From an uncultured virus (IMG/VR IMGVR_UViG_3300007516_000009) (taxonomy: Duplodnaviria; Heunggongvirae; Uroviricota; Caudoviricetes): 64,000 nt of DNA. Shown piece after piece: positions 19,544-64,000 of this stretch. A program made the translations under genes and the position numbers. The stretch is taken from IMG/VR virus record IMGVR_UViG_3300007516_000009; one strand, given 5' to 3'. Every line of letters starts with the position of its first letter. Positions within the stretch are counted from its first letter, which is position 1. Below the pieces are notes generated by a model. The model had not been told where the DNA came from, did not search any database, and saw nothing but the letters and a program-made list of their open reading frames with translations.

Positions 19544-20409
19544 TATTGTGCCTTGCCAAAAGTTTGTTTATGTTTCGGGCTCCAAATATCATAACAACTC
19601 GAACATAAAGATTTAATAGTTGATTTAATCGGAGTAGCGCAGCCGCAGCACTCTAATCCCGCCATCATGGGCTCATATACCTCGGTCGGTTGTTCTACAT
19701 CGCGGATCCAACTACCTGCTTGTTCCCAGCCGGACCCATTAAATTTTGGTGAGATGATTGGTTTAAATCCATGATCATATATTTCTTCTAATAAGAGATT
19801 TGATTTTGCAACCCAATCGCCTTTGGCTGCTGGAATTTTATGAAAGTCAACGACAATCGCGCGCATAGATGGACTTATTAGCTTGCCGCTATACTGATAT
19901 TCAGCGCCCTCTACATCTATTTTAACAACTGTTGCGTGTTTAATAGCATCGGTATATTGTACAGCCTTAACATTCTCAGTTTTTGCTTTTGATTTCTGTC
20001 CCAAAATTATACTGTTAGTGACTCCAATTCCTTTTGAAATATTGATATCCACAGATTCGATATCAACTCCAACTACCGCAGCATGAATTACTTCCATGTT
20101 TGGCAGTTTGGTAAGAGAAAGAATTTCGTGTGTTTTACGGGTCGGCTCATACGCAGTTACTTTTTTGACCGGAAATCTGGCACACCGAATCGCAAAGGTT
20201 CCTACATAAGCACCGATATCAACCACAACATCTGTATGTCTGAGTTCAATTGAGTTGCATTCTTTCATTGGCGTAATAAATGGGTTTTTCTCATTATCCC
20301 GGTAAATTACGTTGTGCCCGCCAGGGACGTTTCCACCTGGAATATGTTTATAAAAAATTTCTGGGTCTGGGTCTGTATAGGTTTTGCCGAAAAAACTTGC
20401 AATATTCAC
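19543..20409 (-). CDS. FkbM-family SAM-dependent methyltransferase with C-terminal Cys cluster
   Basis: VVDIGAYVG, AYEP, KIDVEGAE; CCGC...CSSC near the C-terminus. Confidence 0.82.
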   Translation of the reverse strand: MNIASFFGKTYTDPDPEIFYKHIPGGNVPGGHNVIYRDNEKNPFITPMKECNSIELRHTDVVVDIGAYVGTFAIRCARFPVKKVTAYEPTRKTHEILSLTKLPNMEVIHAAVVGVDIESVDINISKGIGVTNSIILGQKSKAKTENVKAVQYTDAIKHATVVKIDVEGAEYQYSGKLISPSMRAIVVDFHKIPAAKGDWVAKSNLLLEEIYDHGFKPIISPKFNGSGWEQAGSWIRDVEQPTEVYEPMMAGLECCGCATPIKSTIKSLCSSCYDIWSPKHKQTFGKAQ

Positions 20410-21374
20410 CGTGTTGCTCCATAATAAGATTTATACCAATTAACAAATTTCTCAACACCCTCGGGGATAGAAACCCGAGGTTTCCAGCCAAGTGCTTGAA
20501 GCTTAGTTGTATCTGACCAAGTTTCAAGTGTATCCGCCGGGTGAGGACCAACCATATTTTTTTTGATTTCTAGGCCGAAATTCTTTTCAATCTCAGCGAT
20601 GAAATCCATGAGATGAACTTGTTCACCGCGGCCTATATTATATATCTCGTCAAGCGGTGTGTTATCATCAATAAGTTTCTTTTCTAGAATAAGCAAAATT
20701 CCCTCAACGATATCAGTCACATACGTAAAATCTCGTTTCATATTCCCATAGTTAAAAACATCAATTGTTTTTCCAGAAACAGCCGCTTCAGAAAAACCAA
20801 ACAGTGCCATGTCTGGTCGGCCATATGGCCCATAAACAGTAAAAAATCGTAACCCAATTGTTTGCGAAATTGGTGATGTTATAAATTGACATTCGTTAGT
20901 GCGTTTTGTATATCCATATGGATTTAATTGATGCCCAGTAGGCGAGTCCTCTTTCCACGGTAATGGATTTCCAGCCATTACACATGATGTTGATGCGTAA
21001 ATAACTTTTCTAATTCCCAATGAAGTAACAGTATCAATTAAATTTTGAGTTGCGAGAATGTTATTCTTAATATACTCCATGGCATGATCGTATGAATGAC
21101 GAACCCCAGCATATGCAGCCAGATGAATTATCACCTCTGGGGTTATTTCACTAATAACAGATTGACAGTTGGCCGGGTCTGCCAAGTCACAGAAATGAAT
21201 TTTTATGTTTTTTGCGGCAAGTATATTTTCCCGACGTTTTTTCAACTGGGGATCATAATACGAATTGAAGTTGTCCAACCCAACAACATCATGGCCAACA
21301 CTATATAGGTTTGATGCGAGATGATATCCGATGAATCCTGCCGCGCCAGTAATTAGAACCCGTGTCATTACCAA
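20406..21374 (-). CDS. NAD-dependent epimerase, UDP-glucuronate 4-epimerase-like
   Basis: ITGAAGFIG, DNFNSYYDPQLK, HLAAYAGVRHS, YGYTK, LRFFTVYGPYGRPDMA, RDFTYV.DI. Confidence 0.9.
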   Translation of the reverse strand: MVMTRVLITGAAGFIGYHLASNLYSVGHDVVGLDNFNSYYDPQLKKRRENILAAKNIKIHFCDLADPANCQSVISEITPEVIIHLAAYAGVRHSYDHAMEYIKNNILATQNLIDTVTSLGIRKVIYASTSCVMAGNPLPWKEDSPTGHQLNPYGYTKRTNECQFITSPISQTIGLRFFTVYGPYGRPDMALFGFSEAAVSGKTIDVFNYGNMKRDFTYVTDIVEGILLILEKKLIDDNTPLDEIYNIGRGEQVHLMDFIAEIEKNFGLEIKKNMVGPHPADTLETWSDTTKLQALGWKPRVSIPEGVEKFVNWYKSYYGATR

Positions 21375-22279
21375 CTTCCTCTTCCCGACGGATAAACTGC
21401 TTTATTGAAATCATAATCTATGAATTGTTCTTCCGTACCGTATTTTCTAGCAAGTTTCATGCCGAATTCGTTTGCTTTATTCTTGATTATAACGTCTGGT
21501 CGTAGGAGCATTTTGTTATTTCTGAACCCGGAAATATCTACGTGGTGGTGTGTTCTGCCATATCGTTCGACGAGTGTTACAACATCCGGGTGCATGTCAA
21601 CAAGCATTTTTGATTTTTTATATGAAGCATCTTCTTCATAATTATTATAGACCTCAGTGGTGTTTCCTCCCCTGACTGAGCCCGTTCTAGCCTTGCCGCA
21701 AAGAAAAGAATAAAATAGCATCGTACAGGCACCGTCTTTAAGGACGCGGATAGAAAGATCAACGTCTTCATTATAACGGCCGCGCCACCTATGCGGACAA
21801 GAATTTTGAATAAGAAAACACGACATAATACGGGTATTCAAAATGTACGGTGGGTACGGATAATCGTCTATACAGAAAAATTTATACTGAAAACCAGCCA
21901 ACTGAACATTTTGGAACCTATCGACAAAATCCTCTGCTGCTCGAAACACTGCGGTCCCTGTTTCCACGCGATATCTTTTATTATTATGAAAGCGCCAAAA
22001 CTCAAAAATGTTATCGTCGAGCAGCCAATGCCGATCAAACCCACTCGATAATGAGTGCTCCCAACACCAATTGCGGGCGGGGCCGGATCCCTTTCCATGA
22101 TTGCTAAACGGTAGCAACAAGATTTTTGTTGGATCAATAACAGCAGCATATGCGTCAAATTCCTGTGGCTCGATCACAATATAATACGGAACGCACATTC
22201 GCTCAAGCGCTTTACTCGTATACCGCGTATCTGCTCGGCCCTTTGAAATTATATAAATTGGATATCGCGTATTATTCAT
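21368..22279 (-). CDS. TET-associated/GREB1-like glycosyltransferase (TAGT)
   Basis: YPIYIISKGRA, GSGPARNWCWEHS, HWLLDDNI, WRGRYNEDVDLS.RVLK, GGNT; start moved to MNNTRYP (22279). Confidence 0.8.
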   Translation of the reverse strand: MNNTRYPIYIISKGRADTRYTSKALERMCVPYYIVIEPQEFDAYAAVIDPTKILLLPFSNHGKGSGPARNWCWEHSLSSGFDRHWLLDDNIFEFWRFHNNKRYRVETGTAVFRAAEDFVDRFQNVQLAGFQYKFFCIDDYPYPPYILNTRIMSCFLIQNSCPHRWRGRYNEDVDLSIRVLKDGACTMLFYSFLCGKARTGSVRGGNTTEVYNNYEEDASYKKSKMLVDMHPDVVTLVERYGRTHHHVDISGFRNNKMLLRPDVIIKNKANEFGMKLARKYGTEEQFIDYDFNKAVYPSGRGSW

Positions 22280-30602: not shown

Positions 30603-30657
30603 TGTCATTCAAAGGCGGCAAGGCCTATTATAACCAGTTTGGATATAAAGTCAATAG
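30603..30657 (-). repeat. Copy C of a dispersed promoter element (uvsY promoter)
   Basis: CTATTGACTTTATATCCAAACTGGTTATAATAGGCCTTGCCGCCTTTGAATGACA; near-identical to 42829-42902 and 61206-61279. Confidence 0.9.
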
Positions 30658-30659
30658 AA

Positions 30660-31172
30660 CTAGAGGGTTTCTATTGTAAAGTTACGATATCTAAAAGATA
30701 CCTCTGCTTCTAGATATTCAATATCGCTACCAGTGATGTCAAACGGTAGCGACGATAACGAGGTCGGGAACATGCTGGTGAACGCGACTCGAATAGAAGC
30801 ATTATTATTTGAAGTTAGAATAATAATAGAGCCATCTGACACTTTCGACTCAAGTGTTCTATACTGATCGAAGTTCTCTGGATGTGTTAGTCCGACCATC
30901 CAATCATGTATCTCAAGATAATTAGTCAGGTCTTCATCTACGCGGAATCTCAAACTAAATAGTTCATAGACTAGCTTATCGCCGGGTCGTGGAATTGTTA
31001 CAAATGGAGTTGGCTGTAGCGCCTCACCCATACTCAACGAGGGTAGCGCGGCAGACTGACAGAAATATTCCACGTTAGGCGCGCGACTCAATAAAAACCT
31101 GAATCCTAGTGGAGACAGAAAATTCTTGTTTCTTACAACACCGGTTGCGGTGATACCAGATGATAATGCCAT
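30660..31172 (-). CDS. 3: Tail completion/sheath stabiliser gp3
   Basis: NFLSPLGF.F, VEYFCQ, PGDK, VDEDL.NY.EI.DW, FP.SLS; late promoter at 31192. Confidence 0.9.
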   Translation of the reverse strand: MALSSGITATGVVRNKNFLSPLGFRFLLSRAPNVEYFCQSAALPSLSMGEALQPTPFVTIPRPGDKLVYELFSLRFRVDEDLTNYLEIHDWMVGLTHPENFDQYRTLESKVSDGSIIILTSNNNASIRVAFTSMFPTSLSSLPFDITGSDIEYLEAEVSFRYRNFTIETL

Positions 31173-31199
31173 TTAATCCCTCGCTTTTGTATATTTATA

Positions 31200-31227
31200 T
31201 TGACAGTTTTCCGTGGTTGTGTATAAT
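31200..31227 (+). promoter_or_regulatory. Sigma70-like promoter divergent from gp3
   Basis: TTGACA-16 bp-TATAAT, followed by TAAGGA. Confidence 0.65.
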
Positions 31228-31249
31228 GGAAACGATAAGGAACTATAAA

Positions 31250-31358
31250 ATAAAATCCGTTAAGTATAGGGCACCGAGCGGGTTCTGAAACAAGTCTGTG
31301 CGCGGAGCCCACGGATAAAGCTCGGAAACGAGTTGATCATCAAATATGGAATCAATTA
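31250..31358 (+). pseudogene. Decayed copy of the MKSVK/QVxx mini-gene family
   Basis: ATA AAA TCC GTT AAG start motif; ERVLKQVCAR and KARKRVDHQIWNQL in shifted frames. Confidence 0.55.
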
Positions 31359-31556
31359 ATGATATCAGTTAAAATGCATTTTTGGAAGCCGCACCCAATG
31401 ACATTTGCGTGTTTTTATTCAGACGAACGGACTCACGCCGACCGATGGAATCATATGAGAAAAAGATTGGATTCTAGAGTTGATTCTTTACACTTCATTA
31501 TAAGAGAATCGATCTATGATGTAAAAAAAGAGGGGACCGAAGTCCCCTCTAAGTAG
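31359..31556 (+). CDS. Small hypothetical protein starting MISVK
   Basis: Start matches the family junction motif (CAATTAATGATATCAGTTAA versus CAACTAAATGAAATCCGTTAA). Confidence 0.4.
   Translation: MISVKMHFWKPHPMTFACFYSDERTHADRWNHMRKRLDSRVDSLHFIIRESIYDVKKEGTEVPSK
31523..31550 (-). terminator. Rho-independent terminator after gp23
   Basis: AGAGGGGAC-TTCG-GTCCCCTCT followed by a T-run. Confidence 0.9.
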
Positions 31557-31582
31557 TTATCCGCTTTTCTTAAATATTCAGA

Positions 31583-32971
31583 TTACATTAGGTTTGCAAT
31601 TGTGATGATACGGTAGTAGATGTTCTTCTTCTGGAACGAAATCGCACCATCAGCCGCAGTAGTTGCGAATGGGTTTGCGACCATACCGTATCGGGTCTTG
31701 AAGCCGATCTTAGGCTGGAAGCTATTTTCACCAATCGCGCGAACCATCTGAAGAGGAACGTATGGGCAGTAGAACAAGCCAGCATCAAACGAACTTGACC
31801 CCTTATAACCGATTGTCGCATATTGCTTACCGGTTGAGCTTGAGAAGTATGGGTCTACATAAACCTTCATACGACCGTTAAGAACACCCGCGAAGGTGTT
31901 TCCCGTGTCATCAACGTTCAGGTTAGCACTGAGTGCTGGAGTGTAATCGAGAACACCTGCCATCTGGAGAGCGGAAGCGACGTCCGAACCACAGATAAGG
32001 ATGTTGCCCTTGCCACGACGAGTTGCTTGAGCAATCTTGTTAGCTTCGCGCTCAAGTTGGAATACCAAGCCCTTGAAGCGCTCTACTGACCAGCGGCCGT
32101 TTGCATCAACGTCTAGATCGAACGTACCAGTTGTTACCACATTTTCCTGGGCGCCGGCAGTTGCCGTGTAGTTAATCGTACGAACAACTTCACGGTTGAT
32201 TTCAGAAAGAATTTCAGCAGACAGGATGTTGCTTAGTTCTGTTTCTGCATCAAGCCCATGAATTGCCTTAAGATCCTGAGCAAGCTCCATCGTGTACTCT
32301 GCCTTTAGAGCGCGGGAATTAGCCACAACAGCAACCTTTTCGATGCTGAATGCCATTTCGGAGAAGTTAACGCTTGTTGCGCCACCAAGAGCTTCTGCGG
32401 TTGAGGTTGACATACCGGTTGCTACAGTGTAGCCAGAACCAGATGCGCGGGCAGTTGGATCGTTACCAGCCTGCGCGGCGCCAGCACCAGCTGCTTGGTT
32501 ATAAGCCGGTTTGATGTTTGCAGCACCAATCGAGTTGTTCGAAGATGCCGAGAAGCTCGTTAGTGCTTCGTTATAAAGCGCTTCAGAACCAGCCTTCGAT
32601 GCATATCGCGGACGCATAGCAAAAACAAGTCCGGTTGGACCGGTCATTGGCTGAACACCAGCAACATCATAAGCAATCAGGTTTGGCATTGAACGACGAA
32701 CAAGTGAGATCATCACTGGGTCGAAAATATCAATGGCACCATCAGCGGCAACAGAACTCGATGCGCCCATAGCATTTGTTGGTGCAGCTTCGCCCAGTAG
32801 GGTTGGCATACTATATCCACCGGAACCGGCACCAGCTTCGCGTGAAGCCTTTTCTTGGTTTTCAAGAAGTGTTGCTGTTACAGCTCGGCGATGCGGGTCC
32901 GTAATTGCTACGAGATCGGGATGCTCAAGGATTGGGGCCCATTTCTTTTGTAGATCTTCAGATAGAAACAT
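31583..32971 (-). CDS. 23: Major capsid protein gp23
   Basis: KW.PILEH, LLENQE, GVQPMTGPTGL.FAMR, SRALKAEYTMELAQDLKAIHGLDAE.EL, YCPYVPL, FQPKIGFKTRYG. Confidence 0.99.
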   Translation of the reverse strand: MFLSEDLQKKWAPILEHPDLVAITDPHRRAVTATLLENQEKASREAGAGSGGYSMPTLLGEAAPTNAMGASSSVAADGAIDIFDPVMISLVRRSMPNLIAYDVAGVQPMTGPTGLVFAMRPRYASKAGSEALYNEALTSFSASSNNSIGAANIKPAYNQAAGAGAAQAGNDPTARASGSGYTVATGMSTSTAEALGGATSVNFSEMAFSIEKVAVVANSRALKAEYTMELAQDLKAIHGLDAETELSNILSAEILSEINREVVRTINYTATAGAQENVVTTGTFDLDVDANGRWSVERFKGLVFQLEREANKIAQATRRGKGNILICGSDVASALQMAGVLDYTPALSANLNVDDTGNTFAGVLNGRMKVYVDPYFSSSTGKQYATIGYKGSSSFDAGLFYCPYVPLQMVRAIGENSFQPKIGFKTRYGMVANPFATTAADGAISFQKKNIYYRIITIANLM

Positions 32972-42828: not shown

Positions 42829-42902
42829 TTTTTCCTATTGACTTTATACCCAAACCGGTTATAATAGGCCTTGCCGCCTTTGAATAACATATTAAGTGGT
42901 TT
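42829..42902 (+). repeat. Copy A of the 74-bp promoter element, antisense to gp16
   Basis: 73/74 identical to 61206-61279; TTGACT-16 bp-TATAAT. Confidence 0.92.
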
Positions 42903-46997: not shown

Positions 46998-47271
46998 TAA
47001 AGATCCTCCGGCAAATCGTTTATTTTGGCTATTGTGTTAATATGCCCATTAGCATAATATTTGTTTTCATGAAGCGCTATAAACTTAGTCATAGTTGATG
47101 CTAATCCAACTGCTATTTCTATTTTACACCATCACTCATGTTGGTTTTCCAATTACTTTACGCGGCACTGATTTCCAATTCGTCCCGGAGCCCACACAGT
47201 ATGTTCGACCGTCCGGGCCCGATACGAGGAGCGTCCATGTAGAAGAGGCACGAACAAGTTCCTGACCTCGC

Positions 47272-47961
47272 CTACCAAAGTGAATATCGTGTGTTGATGT
47301 ATGTGAGAAGCGTTGCAAGGTCGGTCCCGGTGATCTGCGCCGGGTAGGCGAACGCTTCGACGAACGCGACGTTGCCTGGGACAGTGACGGCGCGGTCGGA
47401 TGCGAAACGGACGATGTTCATGGCGGTTGACCCGGCGCTCGATGGCGTCGTCGCCGTTCCGTTGTTGAGCTGCTGATACGAAGACGCGCCGCTCCAGAAC
47501 GATTGGACCAGACCGTAATTGGTGGTGCCAATCACAACCCCGTTGAAATTACCTTGATTCATCTGGCCGGTGATGTCGCGCTGTTGAAGGTTAACTTTAT
47601 CGAACGACTCCAGCCCCAGGATGTAGTCCGCGTGCGCCCAGCTGACGATTTTGAACACGTTGAAGACATGAAACGGCTGCGCGATTGGCCCGAACGTCGA
47701 GGACATGAGCTTGTCGTTTGTTCCGTCAAACGTGATCGACGGCACGCTATTCGGCCCGCCGGTCGCAGAATAGGCGGGCTTGTTCGTCGCCTCGGAGACG
47801 TTACGGGCGTTGCTGGACTGGTCAGCCCATGCCGACACCGTGCCGCCGGACTCCGTAACGCCGAGATCGGAACGATACCACCAAGTTAGTGCGGTACCGA
47901 TATCGGCAGGGCCGGGCAATCCCGCGGCGCCGGGCGTGAAGAAGGGAAAGGGAAAGGTCAT
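47272..47961 (-). CDS. LamG/concanavalin-A-like protein (putative receptor-binding component)
   Basis: WWYRSDLG, VSAWADQS, P.Y, ITFDGTND.L, YINTRY; ATG 47961 overlaps the upstream TGA. Confidence 0.75.
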   Translation of the reverse strand: MTFPFPFFTPGAAGLPGPADIGTALTWWYRSDLGVTESGGTVSAWADQSSNARNVSEATNKPAYSATGGPNSVPSITFDGTNDKLMSSTFGPIAQPFHVFNVFKIVSWAHADYILGLESFDKVNLQQRDITGQMNQGNFNGVVIGTTNYGLVQSFWSGASSYQQLNNGTATTPSSAGSTAMNIVRFASDRAVTVPGNVAFVEAFAYPAQITGTDLATLLTYINTRYSLW

Positions 47962-48461
47962 GGCTTGGGTATCGACAATTTGACCGCAGCAATAGCGGCG
48001 ATGATGTCGGCAAATTCCTGCGTCTCCGATGCCCCCCTCGCGGCCATTTCGGTAATGATCGCGTCGAGTACAAACCCGATTACCGTCACCTTGTCTGCAA
48101 GTTCTGGCGGGAATCCCTTCACCCCCGCGATTGCCGCCACATAGCCGTTCGCCCGCGTCCGCGCCCACGCCGTTGCGTCAACCGCAAGATCAAGTTGAGA
48201 CCTGCTGTAGATCGTGTGCCGCGAGACCGTGTCGGTCTTGTTGTTATATATCGGCTCACCCGCAACGGCCACCGATCCAGCGCCTTTGCGCTTCTCGGCT
48301 ATCTCGTAGACTCGCTGCAACACGGTCGCGCCAAGAACGTATTCAAGCCCGTCTTGTGCAATCATTGCGCAGCGGTCTGTTGTGCCATGCCATACAAACG
48401 CACCGTCGAACGGTTCGCCGAGAAGATCGCCAGAGACCGTATCGCGGAGGATGAAGCTCAT
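47958..48461 (-). CDS. Putative tail-fibre chaperone/accessory protein
   Basis: Follows the fibre gene with ATGA-type coupling; C-terminal I.AVK..IPKP motif. Confidence 0.55.
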   Translation of the reverse strand: MSFILRDTVSGDLLGEPFDGAFVWHGTTDRCAMIAQDGLEYVLGATVLQRVYEIAEKRKGAGSVAVAGEPIYNNKTDTVSRHTIYSRSQLDLAVDATAWARTRANGYVAAIAGVKGFPPELADKVTVIGFVLDAIITEMAARGASETQEFADIIAAIAAVKLSIPKP

Positions 48462-49387
48462 TGTAGCGCCCTCACAATCAGTTCGGAAAAGCCATTCAAC
48501 TTTGTGATGTAGAAAAAGAAGTCGTCACCGCTCGTTGTGGACGTCGCCGTCGTATCGCTGGCCGTAAAGCCAGAGACGGTGATTGCACCCGCGCTTGCGT
48601 CGTTGGTGTACTGGATGACCAGTGTGCAGTTGTTTGTCGGCGGGGCAAGTGTATGCGCCCCGCCGTTAACGGCGTACTGCATGTTCCCGTTGGCTTCGTC
48701 CGGCGTGAATGTCCCGGTCGTTTTCGTCCCGGCGTTGTAGGGCGTTGCCGCATACCCAGCTGTCAGCACGTCGGCAACATCTGCTTTCAGTGTGTCAGCG
48801 TCATATGCCTGCACATCCGTCCCGATAACCGCGCCGTCCTTGACGAGTTTGCCCGTAGTTCCATCGTAACGTACAAGAGAATTGTCGGTTGCAGTATTCG
48901 CATTTGTAGTGAGTTTAGTTGCAATATATGTGTTTGTATTAGCAAGTCGAGTATTGGCGGTTGCTTTAGTTTCATAAGTGCTTGCGGCGGCAGTTGTAGT
49001 GAGTTTAGTTGCAATATATGTGTTTGTATTAGCAAGTCGAGTATTGGCGGTTGCTTTGGATTCTTTTGATAAGATGTATATGTTTGTATTAGCAAGTCGA
49101 GTATTGGCGGTTGCTTTGGATTCTTTTGAGAAGATGTATGTATTTGTATTAGCAAGAAATGCAACTTCAGTTGAATTGATTGACGCCGCAGGAAGTGTTA
49201 TAGAAGTGTTAACAGTCAACCATTTTATAGTCACAGTATTAGCGCTTACTGTATTTGAAGTTACCGCGTTGGCAGAAATAGTATTTGCTGCTGGATTAAT
49301 CTCGAACAAATTTGTAGCTAGTTGATTTGTCCGTGTTACCCAAACGTTAAATGTATCCGTGAGCGCGACGTTAGCGACTTGACCCAT
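48458..49387 (-). CDS. Fibre-like structural protein with internal repeats
   Basis: N-terminal DTF..W..RTN motif, ANTNTYI repeats, RYDGTTGKL, IGTDVQAYDA. Confidence 0.7.
   Translation of the reverse strand: MGQVANVALTDTFNVWVTRTNQLATNLFEINPAANTISANAVTSNTVSANTVTIKWLTVNTSITLPAASINSTEVAFLANTNTYIFSKESKATANTRLANTNIYILSKESKATANTRLANTNTYIATKLTTTAAASTYETKATANTRLANTNTYIATKLTTNANTATDNSLVRYDGTTGKLVKDGAVIGTDVQAYDADTLKADVADVLTAGYAATPYNAGTKTTGTFTPDEANGNMQYAVNGGAHTLAPPTNNCTLVIQYTNDASAGAITVSGFTASDTTATSTTSGDDFFFYITKLNGFSELIVRALQ
48905..49155 (-). repeat. Intragenic 60-bp/90-bp tandem repeats (KATANTRLANTNTYI)
   Basis: TGTTTGTATTAGCAAGTCGAGTATTGGCGGTTGCTTT at 48931, 49021 and 49081, plus a partial copy at 49141. 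Confidence 0.9.
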
Positions 49388-49390
49388 GTG

Positions 49391-49603
49391 TTATTTTCCT
49401 TGTAGGGCGCTTAAAATTTTAGTTAGGGTTTCTTGCATATCCGCAATATCCTGCTTCATAGTATTTATATCGTCTGTCATAATCCTATTTTTAGCTTTAC
49501 TGTTCTTGTACGCAGAGAGTGCTTGTGTATCCGTAGATAAAATGGCGCCAGTTGACGGATCTTTTTTAAATCCGTCAACATCTTGTATTGGTTGCAAGTT
49601 CAT
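49391..49603 (-). CDS. Small conserved protein downstream of VrlC-like gene
   Basis: KDP.TGAIL.TD followed by a coiled coil. Confidence 0.7.
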   Translation of the reverse strand: MNLQPIQDVDGFKKDPSTGAILSTDTQALSAYKNSKAKNRIMTDDINTMKQDIADMQETLTKILSALQGK

Positions 49604-61205: not shown

Positions 61206-61279
61206 TTTTTCCTATTGACTTTATATCCAAACCGGTTATAATAGGCCTTGCCGCCTTTGAATAACATATTAAGTGGTTT
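61206..61279 (+). repeat. Copy B of the 74-bp promoter element
   Basis: 73/74 identical to 42829-42902. Confidence 0.92.
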
Positions 61280-61354: not shown

Positions 61355-61387
61355 AAAAAAGCCCGAATACATGACTGTTTCGGGCTT
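61355..61387 (-). terminator. Terminator closing the QVxx array transcript
   Basis: AAGCCCGAA...TTCGGGCTT stem followed by a T-run on the minus strand. Confidence 0.7.
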
Positions 61388-61413: not shown

Positions 61414-61572
61414 TCAGTGATAAAGGTGCCAATCTAATAATCCAGCAAGTCGACTATTAATTCGTATATAAATCTGCTTTAAAAGCTTGTTGCGAATCAA
61501 TTCTACTTCTGGACAAGCTCCCGCAAGTGGATATCGTTCTTTACAGAGAAGTGTAGCTTTAACGGATTTCAT
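61414..61572 (-). CDS. Last ORF in the chain (52 aa, MKSVKATLLCKERYP...), without QV repeats
   Basis: My translation; starts at the family junction motif. Confidence 0.45.
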   Translation of the reverse strand: MKSVKATLLCKERYPLAGACPEVELIRNKLLKQIYIRINSRLAGLLDWHLYH

Positions 61573-61753
61573 TTAGCCGATCCTTAACTTGCTGCTCGGC
61601 TTGATGCCCGATTTGATCATAGACTTGATCCGAGACTTGATTCCGGACTTGATGCCGGACTTGACGCTCGACTTGACGCTCGACTCGATCCCCGACTTGA
61701 TACCAGACTTGCTGCTCGACTCGATCCCAGACTTGATGTTTAACGGATTTCAT
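61559..61753 (-). CDS. QVxx-repeat mini-protein (64 aa)
   Basis: MKSVKHQVWDRVEQQV...KDRLNEIR*. Confidence 0.7.
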   Translation of the reverse strand: MKSVKHQVWDRVEQQVWYQVGDRVERQVERQVRHQVRNQVSDQVYDQIGHQAEQQVKDRLNEIR

Positions 61754-61910
61754 TTAGCCGATCCTTAACTTGCTGCTCGGCTTGATGCTCGGCTTGATGC
61801 CCGATTTGATCATAGACTTGATCCGAGACTTGATTCCGGACTTGACGCCAGACTTGATCACAGACTGGAGCCCTGACTTGATACCGGACTTGCTGCTCAA
61901 CGGATTTCAT
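61740..61910 (-). CDS. QVxx-repeat mini-protein (56 aa)
   Basis: My translation: MKSVEQQVRYQVRAPVCDQVWRQVRNQVSDQVYDQIGHQAEHQAEQQVKDRLNEIR*. Confidence 0.7.
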   Translation of the reverse strand: MKSVEQQVRYQVRAPVCDQVWRQVRNQVSDQVYDQIGHQAEHQAEQQVKDRLNEIR

Positions 61911-62183
61911 TTAGCTGATCCTTAACTTGCTGCCAGACTTGATGATAGACTCGTTCTTTCACGGATTTTATGTAGTTGATGATAGACTTGATCACAGACC
62001 TGATGCCAGACTTGACGCCGGACTTGATACCGGACTTGATCACAGACCTGAGGCCAGATCTCAGGCCAGACTTGATTCCGGACTTGACACTCGACTTGAT
62101 GTCAGACTTGATCCCAGACCTGATGCTGGACTTTATTATGGACATGATTCCAGATATATAATTCGATCTTTAACGGATTTCAT
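61897..62183 (-). pseudogene. Disrupted QVxx modules
   Basis: ATG 62183 loses frame in a TA run; TGA at 62102-62104 in the QV frame; junction at 61971 has ATA for ATG and GAA for TAA. Confidence 0.65.
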
Positions 62184-62192
62184 TGACTTAGT

Positions 62193-62447
62193 CTATAGTT
62201 CTTCATTTACTTCTACAAACAACTCAGTCATTTGCTCTGTAGTAGAAAAATGAGCAATAACAACCAACAAAGCGTCGCAGTATTTCAGATCATAGGCCAA
62301 GTCTTCTTTCGTATGATCTTCCGTCGCGGGTTGCTTCTCAATGCGCGCAATAAGCTTCTTGGTACTCTTCAAAGAATCAATCAACGACAAGCGAGTAATA
62401 ATATCCGCTGTTTCGTAATCCAGCCGAATTCCTTCTAAATAGATCAT
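62193..62447 (-). CDS. Hypothetical protein embedded in the array
   Basis: GGAGG RBS; LDYETAD.IT...L pattern; no QV repeats. Confidence 0.7.
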   Translation of the reverse strand: MIYLEGIRLDYETADIITRLSLIDSLKSTKKLIARIEKQPATEDHTKEDLAYDLKYCDALLVVIAHFSTTEQMTELFVEVNEEL

Positions 62448-62570
62448 AGTATGTTCCTCCAGTTAGGTTTGGTTTATTTATTTGTCCATACTCTAAAGAT
62501 ATCACGCCCGATCAGTTTATAAATCCTTTGTTTTTATTGAATAATACAGCTCATATTTAACGGATTTCGT

Positions 62571-62894
62571 CTAGTTGCTCCAGCTTTGCTGCCAGACTCG
62601 AGGCCGGACTTGACGATGGACTCGATCATAGACCTGATGCGTGACTCGAATCCTGACTTGACGCTCGACTTTATTATCGACTTGATGCAAGACCTGAGGC
62701 CGAACTTGATTATAGACTTGTTCCAAGACTCGCTGCTTAACTCGATGCCGAACTTGATTATAGACTGAACCCCGAACTTGACACTGGACTTGATTATAGA
62801 CTTGATCAAAGACTTGATCCCGGACTCGATCATAGACTTGACGCCGAGCTTGACCCAAGACTTGAAGCACGACCTGCTTTTTAACGGATTTCAT
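62571..62894 (-). CDS. Long QVxx-repeat protein (107 aa), frameshifted just before its canonical end
   Basis: MKSVKKQVVLQV...; EQLDEIR* is present in a neighbouring frame ending near 62557. Confidence 0.65.
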   Translation of the reverse strand: MKSVKKQVVLQVLGQARRQVYDRVRDQVFDQVYNQVQCQVRGSVYNQVRHRVKQRVLEQVYNQVRPQVLHQVDNKVERQVRIRVTHQVYDRVHRQVRPRVWQQSWSN

Positions 62895-63051
62895 TTAGTT
62901 GCTCCTGGACCTGATTATAGACTTGATCACAGACTTGATCACAGACTTGACGCCAGACTTGATGACGGACTTGATCCCGGACTTGATCCCGCATTTGACG
63001 CTGGACTTGATGACGGACTTGATCATAGACTTGCTTTTTAACGGATTTCAT
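62881..63051 (-). CDS. QVxx-repeat mini-protein (56 aa)
   Basis: MKSVKKQVYDQVRHQVQRQMRDQVRDQVRHQVWRQVCDQVCDQVYNQVQEQLNEIR*. Confidence 0.7.
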   Translation of the reverse strand: MKSVKKQVYDQVRHQVQRQMRDQVRDQVRHQVWRQVCDQVCDQVYNQVQEQLNEIR

Positions 63052-63208
63052 GTAGTTGCTCCAAGACTCGATCCATGACTCGATATGTGGCTTGGTGCCA
63101 GACTCGATGCCAGATTTGATTAAAGACTTGATTTCCAGAGTCAACTTCGACTTGTCACGCGACTTTATCTAAGACTTGATTCCGGATTTGCTCTTTAACG
63201 GATTTCAT
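63038..63208 (-). pseudogene. QVxx module with one in-frame TGA
   Basis: MKSVKEQIRNQVLDKVA*QVEVDSGNQVFNQIWHRVWHQATYRVMDRVLEQLHEIR*; TGA at 63155-63157. Confidence 0.65.
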
Positions 63209-63323
63209 TCTCGACTCGATTACGGATTTCATTTCCAGACTGGGCCCAGTAGGACAAGCCGGTTCGCGAACCGGCTTGTTATCTTACTCTCCTGTTTCAG
63301 TAAGAAAGTGCGTGTTCGGCGGC

Positions 63324-63581
63324 CTATACGGCGACGCCGCCCTGGGTCCATGCCTGGAACAGGCCTACCGGCGCCATGCCTTCGGTCCCATCCTCGTGCG
63401 TCCAGCCGGCGGGCGCCTCATAGACCGTGAACCCTCGGTCCATGAAGAAGTCCACCTCCTCGAAGGGGTCGACCTCTGCGGGCGCGACCAGGTGGCATGC
63501 GCGACTCGGTGATGTGGCGCGGACCGAGCTGATGACGCCGGTGGCGAAGTCGATCAGTACGTAGGTCTTGTTGGTATCCAT
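63324..63581 (-). CDS. GC-rich early hypothetical protein
   Basis: Behind an early promoter and TGAAACAGGAGAC leader. Confidence 0.65.
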   Translation of the reverse strand: MDTNKTYVLIDFATGVISSVRATSPSRACHLVAPAEVDPFEEVDFFMDRGFTVYEAPAGWTHEDGTEGMAPVGLFQAWTQGGVAV

Positions 63582-63586
63582 AATCT

Positions 63587-63635
63587 GTCTCCTGTTTCAA
63601 TATAGTTACTATATCACACTCAGAAACGATGTTAA
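63587..63635 (-). promoter_or_regulatory. Early promoter plus leader cassette
   Basis: TTAACA-16 bp-TATAGT then TTGAAACAGGAGAC; shares ACATCGTTTC...TGTGATATA with 14104-14152. Confidence 0.65.
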
Positions 63636-63666
63636 CAATTATTTTTAAAATCTTTTATAAAGCGTA

Positions 63667-64000
63667 TTAGCCCGCAACCGCAAATATTTCTGCGATGCTA
63701 TCATATAAGTCGAATTGCCCGCAAACTAACTCATGTTTACCCGCTTTAGGAAAGTCAACTATTTTAGAATAGGGCGATTTCCGCGCGTATATCACAACAC
63801 CGGCAGTCTTATATAGTTTATTCCATACATATCGGCCGCCAGGCGATTGGCTGTCACCCGCCTTGAGTGTGATATCTAGCTTAGTCAATATGAACTTATA
63901 GAGCTTAATAGCTAGGTTGTCGCCGCGGAACCGACTATCAACTTTTAGCACATTAATGCACCACACATTACGCGCTTTTGATAGTCCCACTAAAGCAACA
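63667..64000 (-). CDS. GNAT-fold acetyltransferase-like protein, C-terminal part
   Basis: V...FRG..LA.KLY acetyl-CoA-binding-like motif and DSQSPGGR.VW; the frame runs off the window. Confidence 0.5.
   Translation of the reverse strand, partial: VALVGLSKARNVWCINVLKVDSRFRGDNLAIKLYKFILTKLDITLKAGDSQSPGGRYVWNKLYKTAGVVIYARKSPYSKIVDFPKAGKHELVCGQFDLYDSIAEIFAVAG

Follow-up and report, generated by a model that had tools for sequence, protein, structure and literature searches.

A stretch of 64,000 nucleotides (nt) from an uncultured virus of the Caudoviricetes (IMG/VR record IMGVR_UViG_3300007516_000009), referred to below at its full length as the window, was analysed for the nature of a repeat array located on its minus strand between positions 63232 and 61414. 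The array consists of eight modules headed by the peptide MKSV and formed of 12-nt units, in which the hexamer CAAGTC is followed by six variable bases. The pattern CAAGTC-N6-CAAGTC, allowing at most one mismatch, was found 54 times, all on the minus strand within 61610-63190, against an expectation of 0.29 matches, and none of 100 shuffled sequences reached this number. A period of 12 was also returned by Tandem Repeats Finder, and 80 units in register could be counted in 12 runs. The junction motif ATGAAATCCGTTAA (at most two mismatches) was present ten times in the array and 13 times in the window, with 1.03 occurrences expected. Each module head reads ATG-AAA-TCC-GTT (MKSV) and each complete tail encodes QL-N/H/D-EIR followed by a stop codon. 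Tail and following head share bases, the stop being situated 14 nt within the next gene in a different frame. In the order of transcription, the following features (lengths in amino acids, aa; ORF, open reading frame) were assigned to the array:

63208..63232, minus strand: duplicated head motif (MKSVIESR) before module 1
63038..63208, minus strand: module 1, 171 nt, interrupted in frame by a TGA at 63157-63155 and thus broken; tail QLHEIR-stop
62881..63051, minus strand: module 2, intact (56 aa), of the form MKSVK-(QVxx)n-QLNEIR, with a 14-nt overlap between its beginning and the last bases of module 1
62571..62894, minus strand: module 3, open over 107 aa, with a 1-nt frameshift before the tail
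62193..62447, minus strand: unrelated 84-aa gene splitting the array
61972..62183, minus strand: module 4, broken; the head ORF has 15 codons, the repeats are out of frame with the head, and a TGA lies in the QV frame at 62104-62102
61897..61971, minus strand: module 5, short remnant with ATA in place of ATG, ending QLNEIR-TGA
61740..61910, minus strand: module 6, intact, 56 aa
61559..61753, minus strand: module 7, intact, 64 aa; over its last 92 nt identical to module 6 if one 12-nt unit of the latter is left out
61414..61572, minus strand: module 8, MKSVK head followed by a unique non-repeat tail of 52 aa

Four repeat modules are intact (56, 107, 56 and 64 aa), three are broken and one carries the non-repeat tail. 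At the degenerate junction after module 3, ACG replaces ATG at 62570-62568. An identical copy of module 8 was found on viral contig L059, which is a fragment of this phage. No family match was obtained for the 84-aa gene and no homologue was found in any of the related loci that were fetched. Across the 80 units, positions 1-6 have the lowest positional entropy and positions 7, 8 and 10 the highest; in the two variable codons, variation falls on the first and second base. The encoded peptides show a repeat of period four, x1-x2-Gln-Val, with a constant Gln-Val pair and two variable residues; Arg, Tyr or Trp prevail at x1 and Asp, His or Asn at x2.

A preliminary description of this DNA, made from its letters, had proposed an array of at least seven modules of the form MKSVK-(QVxx)n, and the 12-nt repeat itself proved to be real. 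Eight MKSV-headed modules were found, of which only half are intact repeat modules. For the three modules described as exactly 171 nt long (63208-63038, 63051-62881 and 61910-61740), the lengths were confirmed; the first of them is the one interrupted by a stop codon. The reported identity of 61560-61651 and 61741-61844 apart from one 12-nt unit was reproduced with 0 mismatches after removal of that unit. Unit-level change is therefore visible between modules 6 and 7, and unit gain or loss together with module duplication, as had been proposed, is supported as the mode of change of the array.

Judged from sequence, the best reading of the modules is that of mini-genes translated in the QV frame. 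Avoidance of stop codons was measured in 1717 units from related viral loci, which were anchored only on the flanking CAAGTC, with no ORF assumed. The QV phase contained 10 stops where about 159 were expected from base composition, and TAG in this phase was present 4 times compared with 104 expected. Following TA, the third base was T in 79 of 96 units and G in only 4, while elsewhere G was found in 1141 of 1621. The other five phases contained 25, 88, 137, 497 and 1115 stops. A second line of evidence came from the junctions. For 127 of 130 adjacent module pairs in related loci the genes overlap out of frame, and the overlap measures 4, 8, 11, 14 or 17 nt depending on the lineage, which argues for translational coupling and not for a conserved DNA word. 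Two conserved protein domains flank the tract in other phages and are read in one frame with it, and this fixes the QV reading frame. A Shine-Dalgarno-like motif was present upstream of 100 of 175 mini-ORFs; this count had no control and was not used as evidence. No match to Rfam was found in the window.

The hexamer itself differs between lineages. Among 46 loci found through the DUF6745 protein domain (see below) and not through the repeat, the dominant hexamer was CAAGTC in 20, CAGGTC in 12, CAGCTC in eight, CAGCTT in two, CAAGTG in two, CAAGTA in one and CAACTC in one, with a single hexamer predominating within each locus. Since the hexamer varies across lineages while the dipeptide is kept, conservation is located at the level of Gln-Val/Leu.

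For the identification of relatives, a pattern of four units was searched in IMG/VR, giving at least 134 stretches, and in one genome per bacterial species, giving 120. Among the viral stretches, at least one QV mini-ORF was found in 69, at least two in 42 and at least four in 20. The bacterial stretches contained unrelated repeat ORFs in two of 120 cases and arrays in none. These counts indicate that QV mini-gene arrays are specific to viruses and recur across many uncultured phage contigs. The arrays of the relatives are mostly intact and their heads and tails are lineage-specific (MKSV..DDIQ, MNSVK..EDLENE, MTLENKV..NDLRK and others); the related loci provided 178 unique mini-ORFs with a median length of 63 aa. 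A scan of viral contigs with the 15-nt junction motif gave 111 loci with one match each, most of which were taken as chance. True arrays among them were L070 and L075, and L059 is the fragment of this phage mentioned above.

Standard similarity searches returned little. The array showed no match to GenBank phages by megablast, blastn or tblastn, where the low-complexity filter of BLAST probably masks the repeats. A homologue search with the module 2 protein gave 92 word candidates, none at E<=1e-3, and comparison of the modules with Pfam, PHROGs, PADLOC and NCBIfam gave nothing above cut-off, only weak rows (DUF5759, phrog_336 and others). In the ESM Atlas, 30 unnamed clusters were obtained at >=0.9, and the three that were displayed are wholly viral. 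A literature search covering sources outside subscription journals returned no paper naming DUF6745 or containing three repeat peptide strings.

The arrays could be linked to an uncharacterised protein family by their neighbours. In the flanks of 14 arrays, phrog_31813, which equals Pfam DUF6745 (PF20530), recurred in seven. Matches to a hidden Markov model of this DUF6745 neighbour were obtained at 34 of the at least 134 repeat-pattern loci, at two of the 111 junction-motif loci and at none of the 120 bacterial loci. Both positive junction-motif loci are QV arrays with the MKSVK head and LNEIR tail of the window, and the closest array type, L070, which has this head and tail, flanks a DUF6745 gene. 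The link is also seen within proteins. In some DUF6745 proteins the repeat is internal, between an N-terminal domain of about 75 residues and the DUF6745 domain. A profile built from 39 mini-proteins, three of them from the window, matched 4102 representatives at E<=1e-3, and PF20530 was carried by 89 of the top 100 matches. The window modules and their neighbours showed no match to the DUF6745 domain of about 200 residues; the modules correspond only to the tract outside the domain defined by Pfam. A neighbouring partial gene was considered as a DUF6745 C-terminus, and this homology was rejected.

The relation between internal tract and mini-genes was examined in 80 viral loci, which were found via conserved DUF6745 peptides and not via the repeat. 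An internal tract only was present in 29 loci and stand-alone mini-genes on the same strand only in 31; one doubtful locus had both, and 19 had neither. This near-exclusive complementarity is the strongest argument of the present analysis for regarding the mini-genes as the tract in detached form, acting together with DUF6745. Examples of the fused form are gp38 of prophiGD102-1 (Mycobacterium phage), a DUF6745 protein with about 50 x-x-Gln-Leu units, and a 426-aa DUF6745 protein of Caudoviricetes sp. MW202476 (L373:3356-4633) with Ser-Ser-Leu-x units, whereas gp174 of Microcystis phage Ma-LMM01 is a member without repeats.

Some further observations were made on this family. The tracts of L373, L424, L437, L438, L445 and L452 are built on other constant dipeptides (Ser-Leu, Ser-Val, Ser-Ala, Ala-Val, Ala-Thr and Ser-Gln), and the variable residues of MW202476 (L373) are still of the Trp/Arg/Gly/Glu type. 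A His-rich protein of 116 aa, phrog_27831, accompanies DUF6745 in L166, L070, L075, L147, L145, L172 and L174, and in L166:1831-2913 it is fused to the N-terminus of DUF6745. This points to a module of three parts.

Structure prediction by AlphaFold2 from an alignment of 39 rows gave a single helix for module 7, comprising residues 3-63, with a mean predicted local distance difference test (pLDDT) value of 91.4. Each mini-protein is predicted to form one long helix. The repeat-less DUF6745 protein of locus L147 was modelled with a pLDDT of 89.7. Comparison of this model with solved folds gave no Foldseek hit at E<=1e-3 and a best Z of 4.3 in a wide VIA-align comparison, and a sequence search of the PDB returned nothing for DUF6745 or its 116-aa partner. 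A complex was then modelled for the L147 pair, which belongs to another phage than that of the window, and obtained a score of 0.72, the best control being 0.00. This mark is reached by 116 of 157 solved complexes and by two of 215 mismatched pairs. Agreement between runs amounted to at least 47% of contacts and the pLDDT of the partner was at least 81. The best-defined contacts of the helix were made by the constant Val and Gln residues, and the residues not listed as touching were mostly at variable positions. The model supports docking of a mini-protein on its repeat-less DUF6745 neighbour.

In the direction of transcription, the array immediately precedes the gp25/gp6 baseplate genes, from which a hairpin and U-run separate it. 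The following features were assigned to its flanks:

61355..61387, minus strand: hairpin and U-run closing the array transcript, terminator-like (-19.7 kcal/mol, z -4.7)
63324..63581, minus strand: 85-aa ORF upstream of the array, 65% G+C
63608..63635, minus strand: sigma-70-like promoter match TTAACA-16-TATAGT with TG, upstream of the 85-aa ORF and the array; consensus match only
63667..64000, minus strand: 3' part of a 183-aa gene leaving the window

The terminator placed at the end of the array by the preliminary description was recovered as this hairpin, which the consensus terminator scan missed, apparently because its loop is longer than the 3-8 nt allowed by the scan. Of the early promoter that had also been claimed there remains a sigma-70-like consensus match, located upstream of the 85-aa ORF. 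No family match was obtained for this ORF.

A metagenome contig of 2230 nt (L455) is identical to window positions 63345-64000 and extends 1.6 kb further. It completes the 183-aa gene and then enters a second QV array (942-2230) with at least six open MKSV-headed ORFs, ended by the end of the contig. This phage carries at least 14 modules in two arrays, which are separated by the 183-aa and 85-aa genes of no known family. In the search for further extension beyond the window, viral contigs gave nothing and the metagenome scan gave only L455. The stretch is present in three freshwater metagenome runs, all of DNA. Metagenome contigs from these runs are fragmented and have alternative joints inside the array. 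Some loose contig ends at least match the second-array junction on L455, and the alternative joints may stem from paralogous modules and not from differences between strains.

The window belongs to a T4-like phage and its recognisable genes all lie on the minus strand, including those for DNA polymerase, UvsX, clamp, clamp loader, gp55-like sigma factor, portal, major head protein, sheath, tube, terminase and baseplate wedge. The gp6-like baseplate protein showed at most 39.6% identity to Pelagibacter phage HTVC008M and at most 38.9% to Methylophilales phages Melnitz, both of the Kyanoviridae. The repeat was not found in the relatives Melnitz-3 and HTVC008M. The nearest record among those compared, G001, which is 25% complete, is without the baseplate region, the repeat and DUF6745.

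Several features elsewhere in the window deserve mention. Against a G+C content of about 40% for the phage, two islands at 63324-63581 (65%) and 47000-49400 (52%) are richer in G+C, which suggests recently acquired genes. A 74-nt intergenic element occurs at 61206-61279, upstream of gp25, and at 42829-42902, between the genes of the small and large terminase subunits, with 98.6% identity between copies; a 51-nt part of it is present as an inverted copy at 30607-30657, near the tail-tube gene. The element is 99% identical to the G001 stretch between the terminase genes and carries, on the plus strand and so against the direction of all genes, the sequence TTGACT-16-TATAAT, which is close to consensus. 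A stretch of 410 nt without genes (31172-31586), between those for the tail tube and the major head protein, gave no Rfam match; inspected by eye, it shows on its plus strand a promoter of the sigma-70-like kind, at 31250-31263 a degenerate form of the MKSV junction motif, and at about 31530 a G+C-rich hairpin. Genes resembling a methyltransferase, a nucleotide-sugar epimerase and a glucosyltransferase are grouped at 19546-22279, hinting at hypermodification of DNA bases.

The explanation that we favour, with moderate confidence, is that the coupled mini-genes are a detached DUF6745 tract whose products dock on a repeat-less DUF6745 protein and which has a role analogous to that of the mycobacteriophage protein Tweety gp54 (see below). 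The array would be a row of translationally coupled mini-genes, each giving a single alpha-helix of approximately 55-110 residues with x1-x2-Gln-Val repeats. These genes would represent the hypervariable tetrapeptide tract that is elsewhere situated between the N-terminal and DUF6745 domains. The constant Q-V stripe of the helix would dock on the repeat-less DUF6745 protein, leaving the variable residues exposed, and in this way one constant core could carry many interchangeable surfaces. New variants would arise when 12-nt units are gained or lost and when whole modules duplicate and recombine; copies being redundant, some would decay. By analogy with Tweety gp54, the role could be a tunable interaction with proteins of the host or of rival phages, most likely in counter-defence. 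What the results show is the repeat itself, its coding constraint, the link to the family and the complementarity of fused and detached forms; helix and docking are predictions, and the role, like a DUF6745 partner encoded by the phage of the window, is inferred.

Several results weigh against this explanation. No gene for DUF6745 or phrog_27831 was found in the 64-kb window, in the 1.6-kb extension or in G001. The partner gene may have another location, such as the region upstream of the second array, or may have been lost, and such a loss would fit the broken modules. Three of the eight modules are broken, and decay fits this equally with turnover. The case for translation rests on sequence, and the antisense in-phase frame is nearly stop-free as well (25 stops in 1717 units). 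Antisense coding (frame D-L-x-x) was considered and rejected, since this frame lacks ATG starts and its direction is the reverse of that of every other gene, while the fused proteins fix the QV frame. At the DNA level, Val is encoded by GTC in 46 of 56 codons of the array, compared with 60 of 540 in ten large genes of the window, and the third codon positions are the least variable ones. The same bias is seen for Gln (CAA in 46 of 50 codons, against 113 of 226 in the ten large genes). This uniformity is tentatively attributed to homogenisation within arrays. The docking result, finally, is a model confidence obtained with the proteins of another phage and with alignments made by ourselves, and the DUF6745 model has no recognisable solved fold and hence provides no clue to function.

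Among the rival explanations, the one that survives best, although we hold it to be unlikely, is that the mini-proteins act alone, without DUF6745, as a library of helical decoys or inhibitors binding host proteins. The missing partner gene in the sequences at hand is in its favour, as are the 19 of 80 DUF6745 loci without a repeat and the many QV loci without DUF6745 in their flanks; the variable positions, rich in Trp, Arg, Tyr, Asp and Asn, would also suit it. It would leave unexplained why internal tract and mini-genes nearly exclude each other, and both the difference between the docking score and its controls and the position of the closest array type around a DUF6745 gene speak for a partnership. 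Only part of the genome of this phage could be examined, which lessens the weight of the missing gene.

It is rather improbable that a repeat-containing gene fragment underwent runaway tandem duplication and left the array behind as a decaying by-product without function. Stops, frameshifts or a lost start have broken modules 1, 4 and 5, the tail of module 3 is frameshifted and followed by a junction without ATG, and the partner gene is not in view, all of which would be expected of such a by-product. Nevertheless, four repeat modules have kept an open frame here, as have six ORFs in the second array, the array has a terminator of its own, and family-wide stop avoidance together with conserved start-stop overlaps argues for selection.

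A function of the DNA itself, as iterons, a protein-binding array or a sponge of GATC/GANTC methylation sites, had been given as the alternative in the preliminary description and is now disfavoured to the point of being very improbable. Its attraction lies in the density of GATC (15.9 per kb in the array against 3.8 elsewhere) and GANTC (11.5 against 3.3), and in the hexamer, whose uniformity extends to third codon positions and whose Val codon is a rare one. The excess of GATC is a by-product of Asp (GAT) preceding CAA, the hexamer changes between lineages where the dipeptide stays, one frame avoids stops, and the tract is found in frame inside proteins. Least probable of all is a reservoir of silent cassettes from which the internal tract of a DUF6745 gene would be varied by recombination, for although arrays adjoin DUF6745 genes and their internal homogeneity favours recombination, they accompany tract-less DUF6745 genes (31 loci against one) and every module has its own start and overlapping stop.

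The idea of a library of diversifying helical mini-proteins, put forward in the preliminary description, is partly supported by these results. The one-helix prediction agrees with the small helical peptides proposed there, the expected coding constraint was found in the QV frame, and the profile search suggested as a check led to the PF20530 family. The reservation that the family might already be catalogued was justified to the extent that this is so implicitly, in unnamed viral clusters of 'hypothetical proteins' and, for the partner domain, in Pfam DUF6745. The link to DUF6745, the broken modules, the continuation of the array beyond the window and this implicit cataloguing had been missed.

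If the favoured explanation is true, a large and unstudied phage family with thousands of representatives has a modular variable part, either fused or detached, and the detached arrays would be a new viral way to maintain a set of binding surfaces and reshuffle it with no reverse transcriptase involved. Tweety gp54, the one case studied so far, where counter-defence is tuned by the number of repeats, would thereby be generalised. Mini-protein and DUF6745 together offer a testable pair for the study of phage-host conflict in freshwater and marine T4-like phages. For annotation it would matter that 12-nt repeat regions of this kind, which break short-read assemblies, are coding. A wider proposal, which we regard as speculative and doubtful, is a two-part repertoire made of a constant DUF6745 core and a library of fast-evolving helical specificity subunits, detached or built in. 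Were this the case, such phages would possess germline-encoded combinatorial binding surfaces against host defences or for recognition of host factors, and the library of this phage would comprise its at least 14 modules in two arrays.

Comparison with known systems showed both similarities and differences. Unlike CRISPR and other non-coding arrays such as iterons, the array avoids stops in one frame and changes its hexamer while keeping the dipeptide. In the targets of diversity-generating retroelements variation also falls on the first two positions of particular codons and stops are avoided, as is seen here, but the variation in the window is not adenine-specific. No reverse transcriptase was found among 62 ORFs of the window scanned against PHROGs, and no pair of template and variable repeats was recognised in general repeat analyses, none of which was aimed at such a pair. 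The specificity subunits of type I restriction systems have a central tetrapeptide helical repeat of 12 bp (EcoR124I type), present two or three times, whose copy number sets the spacer length. One fused DUF6745 tract gave a weak match to a PADLOC model of these subunits (E 1.4e-4), driven by the helical repeat; target-recognition domains are not part of the present system.

The closest similarity is to the DUF6745 family itself. The detached QV/QL arrays beside repeat-less DUF6745 genes in L147, L166, L070, L075 and L417 have the 12-nt unit, small helical ORFs, out-of-frame overlapping junctions and hypervariable x1 and x2 residues in common with the window. The window array differs from them in having no DUF6745 or phrog_27831 gene in view and three broken modules, in being split by the unrelated 84-aa gene, and in the presence of a second array across two unrelated genes. 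The fused DUF6745 proteins (PF20530, phrog_31813) likewise combine two constant residues with variable ones of the W/R/G type and the D/G type, and share with the window modules a position-restricted nucleotide variation and similarity at profile level. Their tract is a covalent segment of 20-50 low-diversity units between two domains, whereas the window carries separate genes with heads and tails of 5-6 residues and a high diversity of units.

Tweety gp54, together with Che8 gp57 and PMC gp51, is a mycobacteriophage protein with tetrapeptide repeats whose number is adaptive, according to the published accounts. In its 12-nt units (PMC2884959), the first hexamer is invariant and encodes Ala-Ala, third positions are constant and variation is located at positions 7, 8, 10 and 11, a pattern with which our own count on the gp54 units agrees. 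Escape mutants with gained or lost repeats overcome the Phrann gp29/gp30 defence (PMC9262239). The gp54 protein is similar to the window array in its 12-nt unit, invariant first hexamer and variation at codon positions 1 and 2. It differs in its constant dipeptide, Ala-Ala instead of Gln-Val, and in being a single protein with unique N- and C-terminal regions. When gp54 was compared with the DUF6745 profile, no homology was detected (hhalign probability 0.1%). Tweety gp54 is an analogue and not a relative, and it was the only studied protein of this design that was found. The array of the window is a further case of an undescribed but recurrent arrangement, which follows the same tetrapeptide-repeat design as Tweety gp54.

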